64,000 nucleotides of DNA, from assembly GCA_024614665.1 (NCBI GenBank), contig GCA_024614665.1_4861.1; one strand, written 5' to 3'. The position numbers and the translations under genes were made by a program. The DNA comes from a phage. This document shows, one piece after another, positions 3,149 to 55,260 of this stretch. Numbering within the stretch: the stretch's first letter is position 1; every line of letters starts with the position of its first letter. Under the pieces are notes generated by a model. It was not told the DNA's origin, searched no databases, and saw nothing but the letters and a program-made list of their open reading frames with translations.

Positions 3149-5890
3149 ATGGAAGATATTAGTAAATTAACGGGCGACCCCGCGGTAGCTGCCATACTGC
3201 GTAAGTCCACGAGCCCGTCGGCTCAGCAGCAACGCGGTAAGCGTGAAGATGGCGGTGTTACACCAACCCGTACAGAACTCACAGGTATCGCGAGTAGCCG
3301 CATTCGCACCGTTAAAAATGCCGAACGTATCTTTGATGCGCTCCCTGAGTTAGAGGTCATTGTTACCATCGCGACCTCCTCGCTCCTGTCCACAAAAGAT
3401 TTGATTAACACCACGCTGATTTACGACAACGTGGCGGATATCCCGATCGACCTGCGTCAACAGTTGTTAGAACCCGTGCGTGATTTCCATGACCACACGC
3501 GCCAGTTGCCCAACAAACTGTATCAGTGGATTTACGATGCACTGAAATCCAAAGGTGCGAGCCCAGTGTTGCTGATTTCAGATACCGGATTCGATGAACT
3601 CTTCGGCTTAAAGCCGTCTGTTGCAACCGAATCACTGCGCCGGAGCCAATCTGACTTCTTTGAACGTCAGTTGGGTATTCTAGGCAAGATTGGCGGTGAG
3701 AACAAACCGAAGGTTGGTGTAGAAAGTATTCTGGGCCGTGCACGTGGCGCTGACAAGCCCACCAAGCCACAAACCATTAAACTTAACTTTGCATCAGCCC
3801 CTAACAGTCCGTTTAAAGCAGACGGTATGTTAGCTTCCCTGGATATCGTTATCACCGACAACCCGCGTATTACCCTGTTACCAGAGGCTTATCGCCGTGT
3901 GGCACAGGAGAATGCTCGTACCGGCCTGTTCGGGCAGTTAGAGCAGTACGCATATGAACAACCTTCTACACCGACAGGTGCGTCAGCGTATAACGCTGAC
4001 CAGTTCACCGACAGCGAACAAGAGAAGGCAAAACTCGGTTTAATCAACATTGGCGACCTCAACGAAGCGTACCAGAAAACGCCTGAGCAAAAGCTTTACG
4101 GCGAAGTACCGAAGATGAGTTTCTCCGATGCTAACAAAATCGAATACACGGAACGATTACTGCCAGCAGAGTCCACACTCCCGCTCGTTATCGGCGACGA
4201 TGTTCGTAACCCCATAGGTTATCTGGCCATCGTTGACGAAATGGGTAACTTCATTAACTCGCGCTCCACACTTTACGGTGATGCGAACTTCATGAACTAC
4301 CTGAACAACGACGGTATGGTGGATTCAACAATCAACCGTGCAAATCTGGGGATGGGCAACACAACCCGAATCACACCAGACATTGCTAACCGCTTAACAG
4401 CGCGTTATGGTGAGATTGCTGAAGATCAGCTGACAAAAGCGTTGGGTGAGGCGTTGGGGGGTGCTGAGATTAGCATGACGGTAACCGAAACGTTCAGCCG
4501 TATCATGTTAGCGCGCCATCTGGCAAAACGTCATACGCAGGTTATTTATATTCCTGCGGAAAACCTTTGCTACTTCGCCACGGACTTTGATGAAGATGGC
4601 ATCGGTGTATCTATTACCGAACGTTCGTTCGTTATCTCTACTGTCCGTATGGCACTGTTGTTCGCTACCATGAACTCTGCGGTGTTAAACTCTGCGCGTC
4701 ACATGCAGTACGACATTGAGTTGGCACCAGATGACATGAACGGTCAGAAAACAATTGACCAGTTGAAAACAGACATCATGAACTCCTATAACCGTCGTCA
4801 ACCGATGTGGGGGGACATGAACGACACCTGGGCAATGACGACAAACGCAGGTATTGCGTTCAACGTTATCGGTAACGACTACTACGGTAGTACCAAAGTG
4901 TCTGTGTCGGATACCACGCCGGATTATAAATATCCGGATAAGGATTTCGACGAAGGTCTGTTACGCCGTACTTGCCATATCGCTGGTGTTGACCCTGACC
5001 TGGTAATGACCCCGGAGAACATCGAATTCGCTTCACAGATTTTCTCTAAATCGTTGCTGGTCACGCAACAAGTTGTTAAGAAGCAAGAGATTCTCTCTAA
5101 GCCACTGACGCGTTATGTAGTCAATGGGATGTTGGCCTCCCCGTCGTTACAATCAGCGATGATTAAAATCATTGCAGAGTATATCAATGCTAACGGCAAT
5201 GGGATGACTACTGACCAGGTTACGAAAAAGGTCTCTGAGTATCTGGCTGCCTTCATCAACGGTATGAAAGTAACCTTACCACCACCAGACACCTCAGCAG
5301 CAGCTTCGCAGATGGAGTTGTTCGATAAACGTACTGAGTTCTTTGAGAAGCTGGCTGATCTGGTTGTAACGGATGACATTGCTGCGCAACTTCAGCAGGA
5401 AGGCATCTCGATGGACCCGAACGATCTGAAGACGATGATCAAATCCTTCTATACGCGCAACTGGCTGCGTAAACAAGGCATTGAAACCGACTTCTTCGAT
5501 CTGGTTTACGACGATAAATCTCGTCAAGACAACATTACCATGATGACTGATGAAGCGATGGCTGCTTCGAAGACGCTGATTCAACTGGCGAAACGCTTTA
5601 CAGGTCGTCTGGAAACGTTGGCGAAAAATGCTGACCTTGACCCTAACGAATCTGCTGGCGGATTCAGTGGTGGTTTTGATGCGGGCGGTGACACCGGTGG
5701 CGGTGAAGGAGATCTCGGTGGTGGGGGTGACGATGATTTAGACCTCGATCTCGATACGGATGACGGAACCGACGGGGATAGTACAGGGGAAACGACTGAG
5801 TCGACCGAAACCACGGATACAACCACCGAGGGAACGGAAGGCACAGAAGACGAAGGGACTACCGACGACAACCCAGACAACGTCCTCTAA
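3149..5890 (+). CDS. hypothetical protein (913 aa) with acidic Gly/Asp/Thr-rich C-terminal tail
   Basis: ATG with GGAGA about 9 nt upstream; ORF ends immediately before a canonical intrinsic terminator. Confidence 0.65.
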   Translation: MEDISKLTGDPAVAAILRKSTSPSAQQQRGKREDGGVTPTRTELTGIASSRIRTVKNAERIFDALPELEVIVTIATSSLLSTKDLINTTLIYDNVADIPIDLRQQLLEPVRDFHDHTRQLPNKLYQWIYDALKSKGASPVLLISDTGFDELFGLKPSVATESLRRSQSDFFERQLGILGKIGGENKPKVGVESILGRARGADKPTKPQTIKLNFASAPNSPFKADGMLASLDIVITDNPRITLLPEAYRRVAQENARTGLFGQLEQYAYEQPSTPTGASAYNADQFTDSEQEKAKLGLINIGDLNEAYQKTPEQKLYGEVPKMSFSDANKIEYTERLLPAESTLPLVIGDDVRNPIGYLAIVDEMGNFINSRSTLYGDANFMNYLNNDGMVDSTINRANLGMGNTTRITPDIANRLTARYGEIAEDQLTKALGEALGGAEISMTVTETFSRIMLARHLAKRHTQVIYIPAENLCYFATDFDEDGIGVSITERSFVISTVRMALLFATMNSAVLNSARHMQYDIELAPDDMNGQKTIDQLKTDIMNSYNRRQPMWGDMNDTWAMTTNAGIAFNVIGNDYYGSTKVSVSDTTPDYKYPDKDFDEGLLRRTCHIAGVDPDLVMTPENIEFASQIFSKSLLVTQQVVKKQEILSKPLTRYVVNGMLASPSLQSAMIKIIAEYINANGNGMTTDQVTKKVSEYLAAFINGMKVTLPPPDTSAAASQMELFDKRTEFFEKLADLVVTDDIAAQLQQEGISMDPNDLKTMIKSFYTRNWLRKQGIETDFFDLVYDDKSRQDNITMMTDEAMAASKTLIQLAKRFTGRLETLAKNADLDPNESAGGFSGGFDAGGDTGGGEGDLGGGGDDDLDLDLDTDDGTDGDSTGETTESTETTDTTTEGTEGTEDEGTTDDNPDNVL

Positions 5891-5955
5891 ACAAAAAAAA
5901 GAAAAAGAAATAAGGTTTACCTCTCCCTTCGGGGAGAGGTACCTTTTCTTTTTTT
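5891..5955. terminator. bidirectional intrinsic terminator
   Basis: A-tract (5891-5910), stem acctctccc/gggagaggt with TTCG loop (about 5918-5941), T-tract (5943-5955); between convergent genes. Confidence 0.7.
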
Positions 5956-6571: not shown

Positions 6572-6615
6572 TCATGATAAAATAAAAAATAATAATAGGA
6601 GACCCGAAGGTCTCC
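6572..6615 (-). terminator. intrinsic terminator (minus strand)
   Basis: Stem ggagacc/ggtctcc with CGAA loop (UUCG in minus RNA), then A-tract on plus strand = U-tract in transcript; follows stop of gene 6623..8299. Confidence 0.6.
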
Positions 6616-11164: not shown

Positions 11165-11179
11165 AGATAATATCTATCT
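11165..11179 (-). promoter_or_regulatory. promoter-like 15-bp element, type A (plus strand AGATAATATCTATCT)
   Basis: Exact 15-mer shared by 5 sites; about 40 nt upstream of ATG 11125. Confidence 0.5.
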
Positions 11180-11230: not shown

Positions 11231-11929
11231 TTAGGGTATTAGGCGTTGGGCTATTTCGCGGAGTTGGTCGCGGGTTAAATCAGCCAACTTCTGGTCGCCG
11301 AAGCCCAACTTCAGACCCAGCTCGTACCCAGCTTGCGGATACGTGTTCGTGTTTGCTACTGAGAGGAGTGCATCGGCTATCTTTACCATCGTTAACTCGA
11401 GAGACGCATACGGGGCGGGGATCGGCTGATTCACGATTTGGTAATTATAACGCACTGCGGCGTTATCGTAGTCAAACTCCATCCTTCTGCCGAGAACGTT
11501 AAACGACTCCGCAGAATAACTACCAAATGGGTGATTGGCTTTTTCCCACAAATCTTTCCGTTCAGTAAACCCAGTCGCGAAGTTCTGACGTATGGTGTCG
11601 AATATTTGCGTTGCCTGGCTAGGGTGTATATTTTTCAGCTCATTGTAGTCGTAGTCGGCGATGGAATATAGAGTGAACACAACACCGTTTATATTTAACT
11701 GCGGATAATCCATCCGCAGACTGTCATCACCTTGTAAATGAAGTTCCCACATCCTTACCCACTGCAATATCGCGCTTACCGCATCGTGACTGAGATAAAA
11801 ATTAGTAGGTTCTTCAGGATTTTCACGGAAGGGAACAGAGCATTCCGATACAAAAAAGCCGGCTGCCATAAATCCTCTGCCGTCGAACATAGGCGCAACT
11901 AATCTTGATTTTTCTAAATTGATTACCAT
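11231..11929 (-). CDS. hypothetical protein (232 aa)
   Basis: ORF track; ATG 11929; promoter-like element 41 nt upstream. Confidence 0.55.
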   Translation of the reverse strand: MVINLEKSRLVAPMFDGRGFMAAGFFVSECSVPFRENPEEPTNFYLSHDAVSAILQWVRMWELHLQGDDSLRMDYPQLNINGVVFTLYSIADYDYNELKNIHPSQATQIFDTIRQNFATGFTERKDLWEKANHPFGSYSAESFNVLGRRMEFDYDNAAVRYNYQIVNQPIPAPYASLELTMVKIADALLSVANTNTYPQAGYELGLKLGFGDQKLADLTRDQLREIAQRLIP

Positions 11930-11969: not shown

Positions 11970-11984
11970 AGATAATATCTATCT
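11970..11984 (-). promoter_or_regulatory. promoter-like 15-bp element, type A
   Basis: Exact copy AGATAATATCTATCT immediately downstream (minus sense) of a terminator and 41 nt upstream of ATG 11929. Confidence 0.5.
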
Positions 11985-11988
11985 ATAA

Positions 11989-12033
11989 ATTTTTAGAAAA
12001 AAAGAAAAAGCTTACTCCCCGAAGGGAGTAAGC
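11989..12033 (-). terminator. intrinsic terminator (minus strand)
   Basis: Stem cttactccc/gggagtaag, then plus-strand A-tract = U-tract after hairpin in minus transcript; follows stop of gene 12065..14365. Confidence 0.6.
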
Positions 12034-12064
12034 TAATCTTAGGCAACGTAATCCTTACGGATTA

Positions 12065-14916: not shown

Positions 14917-16479
14917 ATGAATAGTAAAATGATGTTGATAACCGCCTTAGCCGCACTGTATACAGAATCTATGCTGACGGACCCTAGCAAGGATCATGAT
15001 GTCATAAGAAAAGTTCTGATGCAGATCAAGCTTCCGGAATATGCGGAAGATGGCGAAGAGCGCTTTGCACTCATCGAGATCAAGGACATTATCACATCTA
15101 TCATAGACGGCGGCATGGAATACGACCACGCGAGCGTTATGAAGCGCTTGAAGCTGGCCACCACTCAAGTACGTCCTCTATACGATACGATTACCAAATT
15201 CCTCGAAGACGATTTGCCCGAGGAAGAAGACAAACGTACCGAGCATCTTAATCGACAACTGTCTCAATATTATTTCCAATTACGTCAATGTTTACAGAGC
15301 GTCGAACTCAAAACAAAAATGGGTCGCGCGTTCGGAGCATTGAATGGAACTGAGACACGTGTTGATCTGAACACCGCAGTGCTCGAACTCAAAGAGGCGC
15401 TATCTACGTTCGGTGAACGCTCTCATAATAAGATTCCATCACTGGTCGGTGAGCTGGTTACAGATAATCGGGCTCCGTTTGTTAAAGTGTTCGACTCGAT
15501 TAACAAGAAAGCAGCAGGTAATGGTTTGCAGACGGGCTGGAAAGCCATTAACCAAATGCTCGGTTGTAACAAAGGGATTACCGAAGAACTGTGGCTAATG
15601 CCGGCGTTACCTTTTAACTGTAAGTCTTTGTTCAGTCTCTTGCTGAGCTTATCGATTCCTATCTTCAACACGCCTGAGAAAGTAATGGCGGATGTGAAGG
15701 GCACACTGCAACCAATTATTCTTGACTTGAGTTTAGAAAACGAACTCGACGTTAACTTAGCTTACGGCTATCAAGCTCTGTACGGTCATTTTGAAGGACA
15801 AGTTCCACAGATGACCATTTCACAGGATGCAACCGCTGAAGAGAAGTTAGCACACACAACAGCAATGTCTGATTACCTCTGTGGTAAGATTCGCGCAAAC
15901 GGTTGGGACTACGTTTTCCAAAAGCACACCAACTCCGATTTTAAAGTGCACTACATCAACGACCTTATTCTCGACTTACGTCGTCGCGGTTATCATGTTG
16001 TTGGCATTCGCGCAGACTACTTAGGCACAATCAGCAAAGCAGGACACGGCAACGGTATTGCCGGGAGTGATATCAAAGAAATTTATCGTATTGCTCGTAA
16101 CATTCAAGTGGTGCGCAACCGTGGGTTCTTAATTGCCCCACACCAGATTTCCCCAGAAGGTAAGCGCTTAAAAGCGTTAGACCCGGTAGGTTTCTGTAAG
16201 AACTTACCTGGTCGTGGTCTTTACGATAGTTGTTCGAGCCTTGATAACGAGGCCGATGGTGAAATGTATTTTAACAAGCGTGTGGTCAACGGCCATAGCT
16301 TCTTAGAAGTTCAACGCGGTAAGCACCGCACCATTATCGATACTAAAGAATCTTATCACTACACAGTGATACCTTTCCAGGATGTTGGCATCCTGCCTTG
16401 GGATTGTGATAAAGAAGAAACCGTAACAGCGTCGTCTATCAACTTCTTCACCGGTGGAATGGGTGATGATTTGTTCTAA
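14917..16479 (+). CDS. hypothetical protein (520 aa)
   Basis: Long ORF with AAGGA RBS; minus strand over the same span has only short ORFs. Confidence 0.6.
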   Translation: MNSKMMLITALAALYTESMLTDPSKDHDVIRKVLMQIKLPEYAEDGEERFALIEIKDIITSIIDGGMEYDHASVMKRLKLATTQVRPLYDTITKFLEDDLPEEEDKRTEHLNRQLSQYYFQLRQCLQSVELKTKMGRAFGALNGTETRVDLNTAVLELKEALSTFGERSHNKIPSLVGELVTDNRAPFVKVFDSINKKAAGNGLQTGWKAINQMLGCNKGITEELWLMPALPFNCKSLFSLLLSLSIPIFNTPEKVMADVKGTLQPIILDLSLENELDVNLAYGYQALYGHFEGQVPQMTISQDATAEEKLAHTTAMSDYLCGKIRANGWDYVFQKHTNSDFKVHYINDLILDLRRRGYHVVGIRADYLGTISKAGHGNGIAGSDIKEIYRIARNIQVVRNRGFLIAPHQISPEGKRLKALDPVGFCKNLPGRGLYDSCSSLDNEADGEMYFNKRVVNGHSFLEVQRGKHRTIIDTKESYHYTVIPFQDVGILPWDCDKEETVTASSINFFTGGMGDDLF

Positions 16480-16488
16480 CGAACACTG

Positions 16489-16506
16489 GGGAGCTTAGGC
16501 TCCCCT
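16489..16506 (+). terminator. hairpin after plus gene (weak terminator candidate)
   Basis: Stem ggggagc/gctcccc 10 nt after stop of 14917..16479; U-tract weak. Confidence 0.35.
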
Positions 16507-16536
16507 ACGGGCAGTTTATGCGTCCTGCCAAGATCA

Positions 16537-16599
16537 AAAAAAAAATACGACGAACTATTTATATGCATGGAATTACCCGAGTGTTCCAGCACTCGGGTA
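16537..16599 (-). terminator. hairpin plus distal U-tract after small gene (terminator candidate)
   Basis: Stem tacccgagtg/cactcgggta (16574-16599), then plus-strand A10 run (16537-16546). Confidence 0.35.
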
Positions 16600-16613
16600 A
16601 GAGTTATTTCATG

Positions 16614-16760
16614 TTAACTTTTGTTTAGTAGTATTTCACCTCCTAAACCCTTGATACGACGAACAGTGTTCTGCTTGGGCGCAGTCAACTGTTGTACACG
16701 TTGGTTGAATTGGGTTTGCTTAACGTAATAGTTAAGTATTTGCGAACGTAGTTGTTCCAT
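16614..16760 (-). CDS. small protein, 48 aa (tandem paralogue 1: MEQLRSQILNYYVKQTQFNQRVQQLTAPKQNTVRRIKGLGGEILLNKS)
   Basis: ATG preceded by AAGGAGG; ungapped similarity to neighbouring 48-aa ORF including C-terminal IKGLGG(D/E)I motif. Confidence 0.45.
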   Translation of the reverse strand: MEQLRSQILNYYVKQTQFNQRVQQLTAPKQNTVRRIKGLGGEILLNKS

Positions 16761-16872
16761 GTAGTGCCTCCTTAGGCAGGTTGTTAATATATCGCTGCGC
16801 TGTGGTGGTACACAATGCACCGATATACTGTCACGGGAGTTAAAAGGGGTGCTCGAACACCCCTGGTTAGTG

Positions 16873-17019
16873 TTACTTCTTATTGAAGATGATGTCACCT
16901 CCTAGTCCTTTAATGGTACGGGTGGAAGTCTGCGGTTGGCGGGTAACCTCTTGCAGACGTTGTTGAAAAGCGACATGTTTCAGCTGTTGCTGACGCAGTT
17001 GTTGCATAAAGGTATTCAT
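16873..17019 (-). CDS. small protein, 48 aa (tandem paralogue 2: MNTFMQQLRQQQLKHVAFQQRLQEVTRQPQTSTRTIKGLGGDIIFNKK)
   Basis: ATG with AGAGG RBS; paralogue of 16614..16760; below ORF-track length cut-off. Confidence 0.45.
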   Translation of the reverse strand: MNTFMQQLRQQQLKHVAFQQRLQEVTRQPQTSTRTIKGLGGDIIFNKK

Positions 17020-17045
17020 GTTAACCTCTAAGTGGATGTGAATAA

Positions 17046-17085
17046 GCTCTCTCCTTCGGGAGAGAGCGCCTTTTATTTTCTTTTC
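17046..17085 (+). terminator. intrinsic terminator (plus orientation)
   Basis: Stem gctctctcc/ggagagagc with TTCG loop followed by ttttattttcttttc. Confidence 0.55.
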
Positions 17086-17126
17086 GGAAAATAAATATAA
17101 AACCCTCTTACCCGAAGGTAAGAGGG
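17086..17126 (-). terminator. intrinsic terminator (minus orientation)
   Basis: Stem ccctcttacc/ggtaagaggg with CGAA loop, U/A-rich tract in minus sense; follows stop of gene 17133..17993. Confidence 0.55.
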
Positions 17127-17132
17127 ATACTA

Positions 17133-17993
17133 CTACGGTTTATAATCAACTTCGTTGATCTTACCGCAAGCCGGACAAGCAATGTTCATTGTCTGCGAAG
17201 TGTAGCGATGTGTTCTCGGTACCGTTGCGACATGATTGCGGTTACAGCCGGAACACGTCCAACCGACCACTGGTGCCTTCGATTGTTTCGGGGCAGGAGT
17301 GTCTTCTTTTAACAATGCGACTACCGCGTGAAATTTACGAAGTTCTGCGTTAACATGCGCTTCCCAGTCGGCGTCCAAACGCGCCGTGAACCAACGTTGA
17401 ATCTTCTGGCCAAGGCCGTCTTGATTTTCTTCTTCATGGGACATCACAAACTTGAGATTTGCGCGACCCCACTGCACAACGTTCTCTACTTTAATCCCGT
17501 CTACGGTGTCGCTGATTGGCGTATAGTTAAAAGTTGGATAGGTGAGATAACAAGCTTCAGCTGTTGCAAAGACCGTATTGCCTTCAAACAGCGCCATGGC
17601 CTCATCGCCCTTAGCATCCTTCTGTGCGGCTTCCAATCGTGGGCAATGGAAACCTTCAAGTTGCTGGATTTTGGTCGTTAGCGCATTGATACCCTGCAGC
17701 ACAGCGATACGCTTTTTGCTGTCTGTAATGGTTGCCATTACCTTGCACAACGCGCGCGAGATAGCGCTATACATTGACGTTTTGCGGTTTTCATCGAGGA
17801 AACGCTCTTGCTGCTCCAGGTCGTAAGAAGACAGGCCGTAGCTCTGCCCTTCGACCAACACGACGTAAGTACGACGTTTGTCGCGGTCCAGCTGGACAAT
17901 GGCCGCATCGGTTAACGGATCGCTAGCCAATACTTCGTGGTCGGGAGGTAGGGGGAAATCTGAACTTTTGATGAAATCAGTAATGCTGTACAT
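17133..17993 (-). CDS. hypothetical protein (286 aa) with C-terminal CxxC...CxxC zinc-ribbon
   Basis: ORF track; C-terminus WTCSGCNRNH...ACPACGKINEVDYKP. Confidence 0.55.
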   Translation of the reverse strand: MYSITDFIKSSDFPLPPDHEVLASDPLTDAAIVQLDRDKRRTYVVLVEGQSYGLSSYDLEQQERFLDENRKTSMYSAISRALCKVMATITDSKKRIAVLQGINALTTKIQQLEGFHCPRLEAAQKDAKGDEAMALFEGNTVFATAEACYLTYPTFNYTPISDTVDGIKVENVVQWGRANLKFVMSHEEENQDGLGQKIQRWFTARLDADWEAHVNAELRKFHAVVALLKEDTPAPKQSKAPVVGWTCSGCNRNHVATVPRTHRYTSQTMNIACPACGKINEVDYKP

Positions 17994-17995
17994 TT

Positions 17996-18418
17996 TTAGT
18001 CCTTAAGAGAGTTAATAAAGTCATCTAAACTAATATCACGGAATGGGAAGTAAACACCTTCAAGCGGAATCGTGTAGTGTTCACTAATGGCACGTTGCCA
18101 ATCCAGAACAGTTGCAGGGTAGTTCACAACCTCAAAGTTAGGATGCGTAATTGGCGGAATTGCGTTGTAAACATAGCCGTTAATATTTTTCGATGGGAAC
18201 GCTGCACGGAACTTCGGCTCCATGTAGAACATTTCCTCTTTTACTTCCTGGCCTTCCCAGAAACGATAACCGCCCTTACCGTCAGGAATATAAATCGCCT
18301 TGTCACGGGGTATAGGGGAATCCTTGGATAGCGGAACAAATCGTCCGTACTGGTCAAGGACCATCCAGTCGGTGTCATTCTTTAAATACTTTTGGAGCTT
18401 CTCATTAATCATTTTCAT
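17996..18418 (-). CDS. hypothetical protein (about 141 aa)
   Basis: Track ORF 17996..18493; in-frame ATG 18418 preceded by TAAGGAAC and placed after an upstream terminator. Confidence 0.5.
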   Translation of the reverse strand: MKMINEKLQKYLKNDTDWMVLDQYGRFVPLSKDSPIPRDKAIYIPDGKGGYRFWEGQEVKEEMFYMEPKFRAAFPSKNINGYVYNAIPPITHPNFEVVNYPATVLDWQRAISEHYTIPLEGVYFPFRDISLDDFINSLKD

Positions 18419-18428
18419 GTTCCTTAGG

Positions 18429-18458
18429 CAAAAAATAATACCACCCGTAGGTGGTATT
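18429..18458 (-). terminator. intrinsic terminator (minus strand)
   Basis: Stem aataccacc/ggtggtatt with CGTA loop, then plus-strand A-tract. Confidence 0.5.
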
Positions 18459-18470
18459 AAATTAGCTATA

Positions 18471-18659
18471 CTACTTCTTCCCGAGTTCCCCACGGAACTT
18501 CGCCAGCTCTTCTTTCCAGTCCGGCTTCGGTAGTGCGCTTTTCGGCCCCACGATAAACGTACGTTCTGAGGTTTGCGGATTCACCTCTACCGTTTCGTTA
18601 TCTTCCACTTCGCGAAGCATGATTCCGTTTTTACCATCGTAATTAACTAAAACACCCAT
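18471..18659 (-). CDS. hypothetical small protein (62 aa)
   Basis: ORF track; start overlaps stop of upstream gene. Confidence 0.35.
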   Translation of the reverse strand: MGVLVNYDGKNGIMLREVEDNETVEVNPQTSERTFIVGPKSALPKPDWKEELAKFRGELGKK

Positions 18660-19041: not shown

Positions 19042-19056
19042 AGGTAATATATATCT
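19042..19056 (-). promoter_or_regulatory. promoter-like 15-bp element, type B (plus strand AGGTAATATATATCT; within 26-bp exact repeat 19036-19061)
   Basis: 26-mer identical to 27539-27564; 13/15 match to type A on the coding strand; 58 nt upstream of ATG 18984. Confidence 0.5.
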
Positions 19057-19080: not shown

Positions 19081-19132
19081 CCCTCTATAACGCTCTCAAA
19101 CGCGTTTTGAGAGCTTTTATCACTATAGAGGG
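19081..19132. other. nested inverted repeats (candidate structured RNA or protein-binding site)
   Basis: Outer arms ccctctata/tatagaggg enclose inner hairpin gctctcaaa-cgcgt-tttgagagc; lies in a 242-bp intergenic region. Confidence 0.35.
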
Positions 19133-19181: not shown

Positions 19182-19219
19182 GCTAAAATAAAGAGACCTG
19201 GTCTCACAAGGAGACCAGG
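19182..19219 (-). terminator. intrinsic terminator (minus strand)
   Basis: Stem cctggtctc/gagaccagg preceded on plus strand by A-rich tract; follows stop of gene 19227..20024. Confidence 0.55.
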
Positions 19220-19226
19220 CACACAT

Positions 19227-24755: not shown

Positions 24756-24793
24756 TAGCTGTCCCTCGTTGTAGTCATATCACTGGCCTAAAA

Positions 24794-24826
24794 CGCAAAA
24801 AAAAGAAAGGGAGCCGAAACTCCCTT
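24794..24826 (-). terminator. intrinsic terminator (minus strand)
   Basis: Plus-strand A-tract then stem aagggag/ctccctt; follows stop of gene 24833..25162. Confidence 0.6.
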
Positions 24827-24832
24827 CGTGTT

Positions 24833-26092: not shown

Positions 26093-26124
26093 CCAAAAAA
26101 GAAGGTGGCATGTTAGGCCACCTT
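26093..26124 (-). terminator. intrinsic terminator (minus strand)
   Basis: Plus-strand A-tract then stem aaggtggc/gccacctt; follows stop of gene 26131..26676. Confidence 0.6.
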
Positions 26125-27544: not shown

Positions 27545-27559
27545 AGGTAATATATATCT
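27545..27559 (-). promoter_or_regulatory. promoter-like 15-bp element, type B (within 26-bp exact repeat 27539-27564)
   Basis: Identical 26-mer to 19036-19061; sits between an upstream terminator and ATG 27496. Confidence 0.5.
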
Positions 27560-27579
27560 GAAATCTTTTCTAATCTGAG

Positions 27580-27621
27580 ACAAAAAAAGAAAGGGTAAAT
27601 CCCCCACCGAAGTGGGGGATT
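27580..27621 (-). terminator. intrinsic terminator (minus strand)
   Basis: Plus-strand A-tract then stem aatcccccac/gtgggggatt with CGAA loop; follows stop of gene 27633..28892. Confidence 0.65.
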
Positions 27622-37191: not shown

Positions 37192-37237
37192 AAAGCACTA
37201 CCCTCTCCCGAAGGAGAGGGTAGCCTTTTATTTTATT
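37181..37237. terminator. bidirectional intrinsic terminator
   Basis: A-tract, stem ctaccctctcc/ggagagggtag with CGAA loop, T-tract ccttttattttatt; between convergent genes. Confidence 0.7.
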
Positions 37238-40844: not shown

Positions 40845-42629
40845 ATGGAAATCAATACCTATTACGCACCCGAGGATGTCATCGCTAAAGAGTGCAAGCA
40901 CGTCGCTTATGCGACGGACGAAGAAAAAGAAAATGACTTTGTCCTCATCAAAGAGGTCATCCATACTAAGGATGGCAGGCTTATCCCGCGCTTGGTAATG
41001 CGTGAGAATTTAAAGCGTCCGGTGTACGTTACCCGTGAAGAATATCGTAACCACCAGGAGAAAAAGGAGTTCGAAGAAAAAGGAAAATGTCAAGAACTCT
41101 GGACTACTGATGCGCAGATGGCGAAGACGTTGCAGATGGGTTTAGGTGCACGTTTCCCTGACCCGAAAAAGAACCTGAGGCGTGTTTGTACTAGCCCGTA
41201 CGTTTATTGGGCCGACTTACCGATTACCAGCTGGATTAAACAGAAATACTTAAAGCGTTGGCCAAACAACATCAGTCCTAACCGTCTTTGTGTATACGAC
41301 GTAGAGACCAACGAAATGGACGGCACGAAGGAACCGTGGATCGTGTCATTTATCTTAGACGACGAAATCCATTTCTTTGGTGCTAAGAACTACATGGACC
41401 GCATCGGTAAAAACGCGGAAGAAGTCATTCTCAAAAAAGCGCAGGAACTCTTAAGCAAAATCGAATTCGATGAGAAAGACAAAAAGACTGGCGAAAAGGT
41501 GACAAAGACCAAAGACATTATCAGTGGTTATAAAATCTTCACCTATACCTGCGCTACAGCAGGGCAGTGCATCGTCAGGATGTTCGAAGAAATTCATCCG
41601 CGTCTTCCTGATTTGCTGGTCGCATGGAACCACCAGTTCGATATTTCACGCATGTTAGAAACCTTGCAGAAAGAAGGCATCGATCCACTGGGCGTCTTTA
41701 ACCATCCGGATGTGCCGGAGAAATACCGTCGTCTGTGGTTTAAAGAAGACCAGGCGAACAAAAAGACAGAATCCAAGTCACTCACCAAAGCACCGTCACA
41801 ACAGTGGCACGTACTCTACTGTACTGCGTCTTTCTACTGTGTGGATGCCATGGTGTTATTCCGTTCGTTGCGTGTCCACGAAGGCCAACGTCCTTCGTAC
41901 AAGTTATCTGCCATACTGTACACCGAACTCGGTTTACACAAACTCGACATTCCTGGCCTGCCGTATGAAGATAACCTGCAATGGCACATAAAAGCACAAC
42001 GGGACTACCCTGCCGAATACGCCGTATACAACATGATGGATAACTTGTTAATTGTGTTGTTGGATAAGAAGACGAACGACTTGTCTTCAGCAATATCCAT
42101 TCTGGCAGGTTTCTCGATGTACGATATCTTCCCGTCGCTACCAAAACGTATCTGTGTGGCCTTTACCTATTATCTGTATGACAAAGGATACGTCATCGGC
42201 TCCGTAGGATCTGCAATGCGTAACGATTACGATGAAGAGGTTATCGGTACAGACGGTTGGATTGTTACCCTGACAGCATGTATGAATGCTGAGAACGGTC
42301 TGAATAACATTCTGGAGGAGATTGACGAATATTACTCTGCGTTCCGTGGTCAAACTGCGGATGCGGACTTAACCCAGGCCTACCCTTCGGCCACAAACAT
42401 GATGAACCAGTCTCGTGAGACCACACTCATTGAACTGCTGTCCATCAATGGGGTTAGTGAAGAGATTCGACGTCGCACGGGCGTCAACTTAACTGCTGGG
42501 CGAGTTAATGCCATGGAAATAGCGACAGACTTCTTCTGCTTACCGGACAAAGACACTGTCCTGTCTACGTTCTTACGTAAGCAAGGGGAAGTAGTGACAG
42601 AGCCTATGGAGTACATCTGCGGGTTCTAA
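40845..42629 (+). CDS. DEDD-type 3'-5' exonuclease domain protein (possible DNA polymerase fragment), 594 aa
   Basis: Exo I-like CVYDVETNEMDG, Exo II-like AWNHQFDISRML, Exo III-like YNMMD in correct order; no clear polymerase motifs seen. Confidence 0.4.
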   Translation: MEINTYYAPEDVIAKECKHVAYATDEEKENDFVLIKEVIHTKDGRLIPRLVMRENLKRPVYVTREEYRNHQEKKEFEEKGKCQELWTTDAQMAKTLQMGLGARFPDPKKNLRRVCTSPYVYWADLPITSWIKQKYLKRWPNNISPNRLCVYDVETNEMDGTKEPWIVSFILDDEIHFFGAKNYMDRIGKNAEEVILKKAQELLSKIEFDEKDKKTGEKVTKTKDIISGYKIFTYTCATAGQCIVRMFEEIHPRLPDLLVAWNHQFDISRMLETLQKEGIDPLGVFNHPDVPEKYRRLWFKEDQANKKTESKSLTKAPSQQWHVLYCTASFYCVDAMVLFRSLRVHEGQRPSYKLSAILYTELGLHKLDIPGLPYEDNLQWHIKAQRDYPAEYAVYNMMDNLLIVLLDKKTNDLSSAISILAGFSMYDIFPSLPKRICVAFTYYLYDKGYVIGSVGSAMRNDYDEEVIGTDGWIVTLTACMNAENGLNNILEEIDEYYSAFRGQTADADLTQAYPSATNMMNQSRETTLIELLSINGVSEEIRRRTGVNLTAGRVNAMEIATDFFCLPDKDTVLSTFLRKQGEVVTEPMEYICGF

Positions 42630-42680
42630 AACAAAAAAAGAAAGGCCTCTCTACCCTAGGGTAGAGAGGTACTTTTATTT
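42629..42680. terminator. bidirectional intrinsic terminator
   Basis: A-tract, stem cctctctaccc/ggtagagagg, T-tract tacttttattt; between convergent genes. Confidence 0.65.
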
Positions 42681-45359: not shown

Positions 45360-45373
45360 TCATACCAAGGCGA

Positions 45374-45405
45374 ATAAAAAAAAAGAAAACGGGGCCGAAG
45401 CCCCG
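45374..45405 (-). terminator. intrinsic terminator (minus strand)
   Basis: Plus-strand A9 tract then stem cggggc/gccccg with CGAA loop; follows stop of gene 45414..45785. Confidence 0.6.
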
Positions 45406-50467: not shown

Positions 50468-50494
50468 CAAAAAAAGAGGGGCGCAAGGCCCCTC
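50468..50494 (-). terminator. intrinsic terminator / attenuator (minus strand)
   Basis: Plus-strand A-tract then stem gaggggc/gcccctc; follows stop of beta'-like gene and overlaps RBS region of helicase gene. Confidence 0.5.
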
Positions 50495-54870: not shown

Positions 54871-54885
54871 AGATAATATCTATCT
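54871..54885 (-). promoter_or_regulatory. promoter-like 15-bp element, type A
   Basis: Exact AGATAATATCTATCT 31 nt upstream of the beta-like gene ATG (54840); also 22 nt upstream of divergent plus gene 54907. Confidence 0.5.
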
Positions 54886-55230: not shown

Positions 55231-55260
55231 AAAAAAGAAGGGACGCCCAGTCCCTTCTTT
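55229..55260. terminator. bidirectional intrinsic terminator
   Basis: A-tract, stem gaagggac/gtcccttc, short T-tract; between convergent genes. Confidence 0.55.

Follow-up and report, generated by a model that had tools for sequence, protein, structure and literature searches.

Stereotyped terminators at many gene ends are known from the jumbo phages phiKZ and 201phi2-1, which possess multisubunit RNA polymerases of their own. Mapping of phiKZ by Oxford Nanopore Technologies (ONT)-cappable-seq gave 133 termination regions and 61 intrinsic terminators with one stem-loop plus a TTAT motif, summarized as BCCYCCCCHWWDGGGRRGGBYTTATKYYGT, and in six regions two opposite termination sites were separated by 23-183 nt; over all six phages studied there, 9% of the terminators were antisense to genes and 42 termination sites were located in 5' untranslated regions (5'UTRs) (PMC10914365). 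The same motif (motif A) is present at 59 sites in 201phi2-1, with eight of the phage's terminators confirmed in vivo (PMC11512511). Hairpins of the cUUCGg type were first described from the mRNA of T4 (reviewed in PMC4371310), and bidirectional or overlapping terminators between convergent genes are known from SEnd-seq work on E. coli (summarized in bioRxiv 10.1101/2022.10.23.513370). Here we describe two hairpins, H1 and H2, which lie back to back at positions 17046-17126 of a stretch of 64,000 nt of phage DNA (GenBank assembly GCA_024614665.1, contig GCA_024614665.1_4861.1), hereafter called the window. The window comes from an SPN3US-like jumbo phage related to phiKZ, and the phages of this group encode multisubunit RNA polymerases of their own. 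The region 15500-18500 is 98.8% identical to Salmonella phage SPN3US (NC_027402, Seoulvirus) and to Proteus phage 7; the gene names used here were transferred from the SPN3US annotation, and in the window gp224, gp231 and gp232 are annotated as RNA polymerase beta subunits.

We consider it fairly probable that 17046-17126 holds two separate convergent terminators of the intrinsic type, of which H1 would stop a polymerase running antisense and H2 would end the minus-strand transcript. An earlier note on this DNA had placed a plus-oriented terminator directly against a minus-oriented one at these positions, and both hairpins are present as it claimed. H1 (17046-17067, plus strand) reads GCTCTCTCC-TTCG-GGAGAGAGC and forms a GC-rich stem of 9 bp (6 GC) with a cUUCGg loop of 4 nt and a folding energy of -16.5 kcal/mol. 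Its tail (17068-17085, plus strand) is GCCTTTTATTTTCTTTTC, with a core, CTTTTATTTTCTTT, that is nearly invariant across genera. H2 is read on the minus strand (17126-17103) as CCCTCTTACC-TTCG-GGTAAGAGGG followed by TTTTATATTTATTTT; its stem has 10 bp (6 GC, -17.2 kcal/mol), the loop is cUUCGg in the minus RNA, and the U-tract (17086-17102, minus strand) is TTTTATATTTATTTTCC. Each hairpin shows features of an intrinsic terminator, namely a GC-rich stem of some 5 bp or more, a loop of 3-8 nt and a U-rich tract on the 3' side. The stem of H2 leads directly into TTTTATATTTAT with 9 T in 12 positions, while GCC separates that of H1 from TTTTATTTTCTTTT, the first 12 positions beyond the stem containing 8 T. 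With 35 nt between the two stems and T-tracts that point toward each other, the predicted 3' ends would converge without much overlap. The spacer between the stems is A/T-rich and self-complementary, and 17047-17124 as a whole forms a long imperfect palindrome. A scan of 16300-17300 against Rfam (E≤1) gave only sub-threshold matches to miRNA precursors, the best with 26.8 bits against a gathering score of 88, and these we regard as spurious matches caused by the palindromic layout.

The genes of the window are almost all located on the minus strand, with only gp185, gp193, gp217-218, gp222 and gp233 on the plus strand. H1 and H2 are placed between the ATG of gp195 (16873-17019, minus strand), which encodes a 48-aa protein (phrog_18219) and starts 26 nt from H1, and the stop codon of gp196 (17133-17993, minus strand), which lies beyond gp195 on the other side of the hairpins; H2 starts 6 nt past this stop codon. 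A 48-aa paralogue of gp195, gp194, follows on the same strand at 16614-16760. Upstream of H1, a single gene is annotated on the plus strand, gp193 (14917-16479), coding for a DnaB-like helicase. It is also the nearest gene on the same strand as H1, with its stop codon 566 nt upstream and no conserved plus-strand open reading frame (ORF) between, so a polymerase reaching H1 from there must have crossed gp194 and gp195 in antisense direction. H2 would end the gp201-gp196 transcript, and H1 would halt a plus-moving RNA polymerase before it enters the gp196 operon antisense. Both would belong to one stereotyped family that is served by the phage's own multisubunit RNA polymerases, and their cUUCGg loops would give fast-nucleating, very stable folding and probably protect 3' ends.

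That such a family exists in the window is well supported by the hairpin sequences. We counted about 18-20 intergenic hairpins that fit it, 13 of them with four-base loops, and with stems of 6-12 bp and varied sequence. Chance expectation was taken from 200 dinucleotide shuffles, in which tetraloop hairpins were scored if their stem had 6 or more bp, of which 4 or more were GC pairs: 35 were observed in the window versus 13.4±3.8 in the shuffles, 13 versus 1.6±1.3 when a flanking T/A tract was required, and 9 versus 0.13±0.36 (maximum 2) when the loop was TTCG or CGAA. Intergenic DNA makes up just 5.9% of the window, yet it holds 8 of the 9 UUCG hairpins. A scan of 10-24 kb for terminator-like sites likewise yielded 28 versus 13.2±3.4 expected, and the minus-oriented family members sit 3-30 nt past minus-strand stop codons. 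A mobile-repeat origin of the hairpins was rejected; they form no extended direct-repeat families, and the largest repeat family in the window is a promoter-like motif, described below.

Since the arms of a perfect hairpin are identical whichever strand is read, the strands can be told apart by nothing but the loop, G·U wobbles and flanking sequence; for the same reason a pyrimidine-rich 5' arm was rejected as a marker of orientation. Ten intergenic hairpins have UNCG as loop on just one of their strands, and in nine of them this was also the strand with the richer T-tract (p=0.011), the sole exception being the bidirectional hairpin at 37197. When each hairpin was folded from both strands, 9 of 11 minus terminators whose direction is fixed by their gene context were more stable as minus RNA, and so were all seven versions of H2 found in the phage and its relatives. 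In H2 of SPAsTU, the Machina-type and the pSal04-type, a C·A mismatch in the plus RNA corresponds to a G·U pair in the minus RNA, a difference of about 5 kcal/mol. For H1, four of five versions were more stable as plus RNA and the fifth was tied. In the window itself H1 reaches -16.5 kcal/mol as plus RNA versus -15.6 kcal/mol as minus RNA, carries UUCG on the plus strand, and is followed within 12 nt beyond the stem by 8 T on the plus strand versus 5 T on the minus strand. The pSal04-type H1 contains two T·G pairs in the plus RNA, and its T9 pair turns into a C·A mismatch in the minus RNA, at a cost of 4.9 kcal/mol (-17.9 versus -13.0 kcal/mol). Over both hairpins 4 of 4 wobble events (three in H2, one in H1) go in the predicted direction (p about 0.06). 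The tail points to the same strand: CCTTTTATTTT in the tail of H1 matches the terminator tails of the plus-strand genes gp185, gp218 and gp222. Sequences resembling the core CTTTTATTTTCTTT (at most 3 mismatches) occur 16 times in the window, versus 6.9±2.8 expected, and 13 of the 16 are T-tracts that immediately follow family hairpins on the strand of termination, those of gp185 and gp218 among them. In loop and tail, the 17046 hairpin thus has all the strand-specific marks of a plus-strand terminator, in agreement with the plus orientation that the earlier note had assigned to it.

The strand specificity also bears on whether the locus acts at the level of DNA, with GC palindromes around a 35-bp AT-rich palindromic spacer serving as a replication origin, DNA-unwinding element or protein-binding site. 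The spacer is indeed more conserved than the stems, the long imperfect palindrome at 17047-17124 would suit such a role, and the locus adjoins the gene for a DnaB-like helicase. Strand-specific G·U wobbles and strand-consistent UUCG loops, however, indicate selection on RNA, the same design of hairpin plus tail is repeated about 18 times at gene ends, and the cumulative GC skew, inspected for an origin, has no inflection near 17 kb. With wobbles that are RNA-specific and a flat GC-skew trend, we regard a DNA-level role as barely credible.

We compared the region from the helicase to the next gene in 20 or so relatives from four genera. Loci were also sought in viral contigs by way of the small protein, which gave three, one of them new. 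Stem length and loop size of H1 vary between genera and the MAFFT alignment was out of register, for which reason column-wise counting of covariation (alignment A2) was dropped and replaced by folding both strands of each variant. Wherever the small gene is present, the order of the cassette is small gene, H1, CTTTTATTTTCTTTKC...AAAATAAATA, H2, next gene. It was found in three genera, namely in Seoulvirus (SPN3US, SPAsTU, pEa29), Machinavirus (8 phages or contigs) and the Wellingtonvirus pEa11. The H1 stem exists in five versions (GCTCTCTCC, GTCCTCTCC, GGTTACTCCCC, GGTTACTCTCC and (G)TCCTCC) and the H2 stem in seven, all of them fully paired; both stems have thus turned over completely, with pairing kept by compensatory change. 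Copy number of the phrog_18219 gene differs: SPN3US and the window have two diverged copies, whereas SEGD1, SPAsTU, pEa29 and the Machinaviruses have a single one. The gene is missing from Asesino, phiEaH2, ChrisDB and Kwan, and EC001 and SPFM have a gap of ~250 bp as in the single-copy SEGD1. Relatives without the small gene still carry a hairpin with a T-rich tail on the plus side at the same junction. A single hairpin that could act both ways occupies this place in Asesino, in phiEaH2, which shares the hairpin of Asesino, and in ChrisDB/pEa4; in Kwan there are two, plus and minus back to back, which enclose no small gene. It therefore appears to be a constant trait of this junction that plus-strand transcription is stopped ahead of the next minus operon.

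Regarding the origin of the plus-strand RNA, the helicase gene is followed by two hairpins. The first (16488-16505, plus strand) starts 8 nt past the helicase stop, has a stem that covaries across genera and no U-tract; the second (16573-16600) is a 12-bp hairpin at the convergent helicase/gp194 junction that is probably bidirectional and has a weak tail on the plus side, GAGTTATTTC. The missing U-tract of the first and the weak tail of the second make read-through from the helicase to H1 plausible. Alternatively, transcription would start at a conserved TATG downstream of the helicase. The sequence TTTATGCGTCCTGCC (16514-16530, plus strand) with TATG at 16517 may be such a start site; it is kept as sequence, not as structure, in Seoulvirus, Machinavirus and Erskinevirus. 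In all of the small-gene phages compared, a further plus-strand TATG, at 16561 in the window, precedes the 16573-type hairpin by 7-9 nt. The core of the phiKZ late promoter is T(-3)ATG(+1), which is necessary but not sufficient (PMC4666361), and on this ground the TATG elements could be plus-strand starts. A strand bias of TATG was rejected as promoter evidence; intergenic DNA upstream of genes contains 8 sense copies and 1 antisense copy in 1942 nt, and 8 is about what chance would give. As a third origin, RNA might start near the 5' end of gp195 and would then cross neither small gene. In addition we looked for a plus-strand ORF behind H1. The sole candidate (16518-16628, 36 aa, from a conserved ATG) was rejected; it crosses an A-tract that is A10 in the window versus A8 in SEGD1, so the frame is not conserved.

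The TATG elements raise the tentative possibility that H1 is the dedicated terminator of a discrete non-coding unit on the plus strand, started at 16517 or 16561 and antisense to the phrog_18219 gene or genes; a shorter RNA of about 80-90 nt would then end at the first plus-facing hairpin. Between helicase and small-gene cassette of pEa11 (Erwinia phage pEa_SNUABM_11, positions 1774-2435 of locus L016) we found three successive plus-strand units of a TATG element and a GC hairpin with T-tract, with no annotated ORFs, which are possibly small non-coding transcription units in tandem. In the same interval pEa11 has two additional plus terminators, each preceded by TATG, and H1 is kept nonetheless.

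The pEa11 locus also bears on the reading of H1 as a rarely used backstop, left over from an ancestral pair like that of Kwan into which the small-gene cassette was inserted later, in which case little or no antisense RNA would be made. This would explain why Kwan has a back-to-back pair without the small gene and why copy number of the small gene varies between 0, 1 and 2, and most transcripts from the helicase may end before H1, at the 16573 hairpin, which has a tail of the TTAT type. A relic, however, would decay, whereas H1 keeps its pairing, UUCG loop and tail through full turnover of the stem in three genera, and since pEa11 has both a Kwan-type plus terminator and H1, the two are different elements. 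We therefore hold this origin to be quite improbable.

Several points weigh against H1 as a terminator of antisense transcription. Its U-tract begins 3 nt beyond the stem, its wobble support comes from a single mutational event common to five sequences, and the 16-nt tail adjoining H1 is more conserved than a plain U-tract requires. Read-through from the helicase alone explains H1 of pEa11 poorly, as two plus terminators already precede the cassette there. The window contains no plus-strand copy of the early-promoter-like motif described below, and in the literature on phages of the SPN3US group we found no transcript map, RNA 3'-end data, strand-specific expression data or terminator description. 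Finally, H1 strictly co-occurs with the small gene at a fixed distance of ~26 nt from its ATG, which would fit a role as leader or promoter of that gene as well. According to this alternative H1 acts in the minus RNA or in DNA, as a stabilising or attenuating stem-loop in the 5' leader of gp195, with a promoter in the AT-rich spacer and the plus-side T-tract of H1 being promoter or UP-like sequence. It would account for the presence of H1 in all phages with the small gene and its absence from those without, and for the half of the spacer on the H1 side (GCAAAGAAAATAAAAG on the minus strand) being nearly invariant across genera. As gp195 comes after the strong minus terminator H2, it needs a promoter or read-through, and the Pseudomonas phages studied by ONT-cappable-seq, including phiKZ, often have hairpins and termination sites in their 5'UTRs (42 termination sites; PMC10914365). 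On the other hand, the loop of H1 in the minus RNA would be CGAA, although 9 of 10 family members have UNCG on their functional strand, and the pSal04-type stem would suffer the C·A mismatch with its cost of 4.9 kcal/mol. The spacer contains neither the early-like motif nor TATG, sequence like the H1 tail is found elsewhere mostly (13 of 16) directly behind family hairpins, and the small gene can do without a hairpin of this kind, as none is present upstream of the paralogue gp194. A leader or promoter role is therefore unlikely in our view, and two convergent terminators are still the reading we prefer. That they terminate transcription, and that plus-strand RNA exists and arises as proposed, we infer from sequence. 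The orientation of H1 argues for antisense transcription over gp194 and gp195, as the earlier note had concluded, and its conservation strengthens this case, which we regard as reasonable though unproven.

The early-promoter-like motif, ATAKATATTAHC, has a conserved context of roughly 33 nt and is present in 7 copies versus 1.15 expected (11166-11177, 11971-11982, 19043-19054, 27546-27557, 54872-54883, 58615-58626 and 60031-60042). Six of the seven are located upstream of genes and the 58615 copy within gp236. The motif fits the phage-specific AT-rich early promoter, for the virion RNA polymerase, that is expected for jumbo phages encoding RNA polymerases (PMC7598289) and is thus a promoter candidate. 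All seven copies are on the minus strand, for which reason it was rejected as source of the plus-strand RNA.

The remaining putative terminators of the family are dispersed over the window. Single hairpins are located at four convergent junctions, gp185/gp186 (5918-5941, UUCG on the plus strand), gp218/gp219 (37197-37224, UUCG on the minus strand), gp222/gp223 (42645-42670, CUAG loop) and gp233/gp234 (55237-55260); the first three have T-tracts on both sides and are predicted to be bidirectional, as the fourth may be too. On the minus strand, UUCG loops are present in the hairpins after gp188 (6598-6615), the major head protein gene gp191 (12009-12034), gp207 (24806-24827), gp212 (27598-27621) and gp226 (45390-45405), and other loops in those after gp198 (18436-18459, UACG), gp201 (19196-19220, 5 nt), gp210 (26102-26124, 7 nt) and gp231 (50476-50494, 5 nt). 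A further hairpin 8 nt past the gp195 stop (16845-16864, minus strand), followed by TTTTAACT, is probably the terminator of gp195. UUCG is closed by C:G at 5918, 6598, 12009, 17046, 17103, 27598, 37197 and 45390, and by U·G at 24806. All seven UUCG positions listed in the earlier note were correct, with TTCG on the plus strand at 5928 and 17055 and with CGAA, which is UUCG in the minus RNA, at 6605, 17113, 27608, 37209 and 45396; it had overlooked UUCG at 12020 and 24815 and UACG at 18447. It had further counted at least 15 terminators of one architecture that begins with an A-tract. The family is real, with about 18-20 members, but the 5' A-tract is confined to the bidirectional members at convergent junctions, and unidirectional minus terminators have none 5' of the stem in their own transcript.

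In comparison with phiKZ and 201phi2-1, the window shares the pyrimidine-rich 5' arm, the purine-rich 3' arm and the TTAT-containing tail, as well as some antisense or back-to-back members. This design with a nearby TTAT fits H1, H2, 37197 (both sides), 42645 (plus side), 19092 and 19196, and the TTAT-containing tails read GGG-TTTTAT, GCC-TTTTAT, CC-TTTTAT and AC-TTTTAT. The literal phiKZ consensus has no match in the window on either strand with up to 3 mismatches. In contrast to phiKZ, the loops are mostly UUCG rather than HWWD, the stems of 6-12 bp are varied, and a second tail type, TTTCTTTTTTTGT, is present. At four terminators we noted the minus-strand tail TTTCTTTTTTT(T)GTYTNAGA (5886-5904, 27574-27592, 42625-42643 and 45370-45388), which is distinct from the TTTTAT type and divides the family into two tail subtypes. 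While the terminators of phiKZ and 201phi2-1 were mapped experimentally, those of the window are predicted from sequence. UUCG loops are common in E. coli terminators. As with the T4 cUUCGg hairpins, the elements here are intercistronic in a large virulent phage and 8 of the 9 intergenic UUCG hairpins are closed by C:G; the T4 hairpins are read by the host RNA polymerase, however, whereas the polymerases of the window phage are phage-encoded. Similar to the bidirectional terminators of E. coli and phiKZ, 17046-17126 presents opposite signals within a few tens of nt and an A/T-rich self-complementary spacer. It differs from them in comprising two separate hairpins instead of a shared one, and it does not divide a convergent gene pair, since its neighbours gp195 and gp196 run in the same, minus direction.

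Two further hairpins with the T-tract on the plus side are found within minus-strand gene clusters: a second antisense-oriented hairpin at 19092-19114 with a TTTTAT tail, and a third at 60092-60111, which has its T-tract on the plus side only and N9-TTATGCGT next to it on the minus side. Read along the minus strand, both precede a copy of the promoter-like motif by ~40-60 nt, in the case of 19092-19114 the copy at 19043-19054. This repeated arrangement of minus terminator, plus-facing terminator, minus promoter and gene suggests insulation against divergent or antisense transcription. We also noted a composite of the form GC hairpin - 9 nt - (T)TATG[CT]GT at 16488-16524 (plus strand, after the helicase) and 60111-60075 (minus strand, after gp237), in both cases in sense orientation just past the stop codon. 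Both loci are conserved across genera, with stems that covary and no U-tract on the sense side, and at 60111-60075 a T-tract is conserved on the antisense side only. The composite could be a terminator-promoter couple.

Some observations concern the genes themselves. The invariant residues of the 48-aa protein (phrog_18219) are QR...KGLGG[DE]I, and in SEGD1 (positions 1781-2183 of locus L005) the lone copy of its gene is intact and unannotated in the record. The C-terminus of gp196 (residues 246-282) shows a weak PHROG match to a family of 'translational regulator' (phrog_6417, E=0.002). An ORF of 232 aa with an ATG start (11231-11929, minus strand) takes up the greater part of the 939 nt that count as 'intergenic' between gp190 and gp191; it has no counterpart in the SPN3US RefSeq annotation of that stretch. 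The 591-nt gene gp206 of SPN3US has no match in the window (24756-24832) and was thus deleted or replaced between gp205 and gp207.

Terminators of this kind are already known, as antisense and back-to-back examples have been mapped in the related phages phiKZ and 201phi2-1. For jumbo phages of the SPN3US group, the analysis provides a first map at sequence level, with about 18-20 likely terminators and a 7-copy early-promoter-like motif, which is useful to annotation, operon prediction and phage engineering. Should the antisense interpretation of H1 fail, the pair would consist of ordinary terminators only. The stereotyped-terminator design of the phiKZ-like phages of Pseudomonas would extend to their enterobacterial relatives, with differences in detail such as the UUCG loops and the two tail types. 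The conserved wrong-way terminator marks a specific place where antisense or non-coding RNA is likely to be made from the strand opposite the gene of a conserved 48-aa protein, and if a unit from TATG to H1 does exist, it would constitute a conserved cassette of cis-antisense RNA and small protein in the nucleus-forming jumbo phages of enterobacteria.

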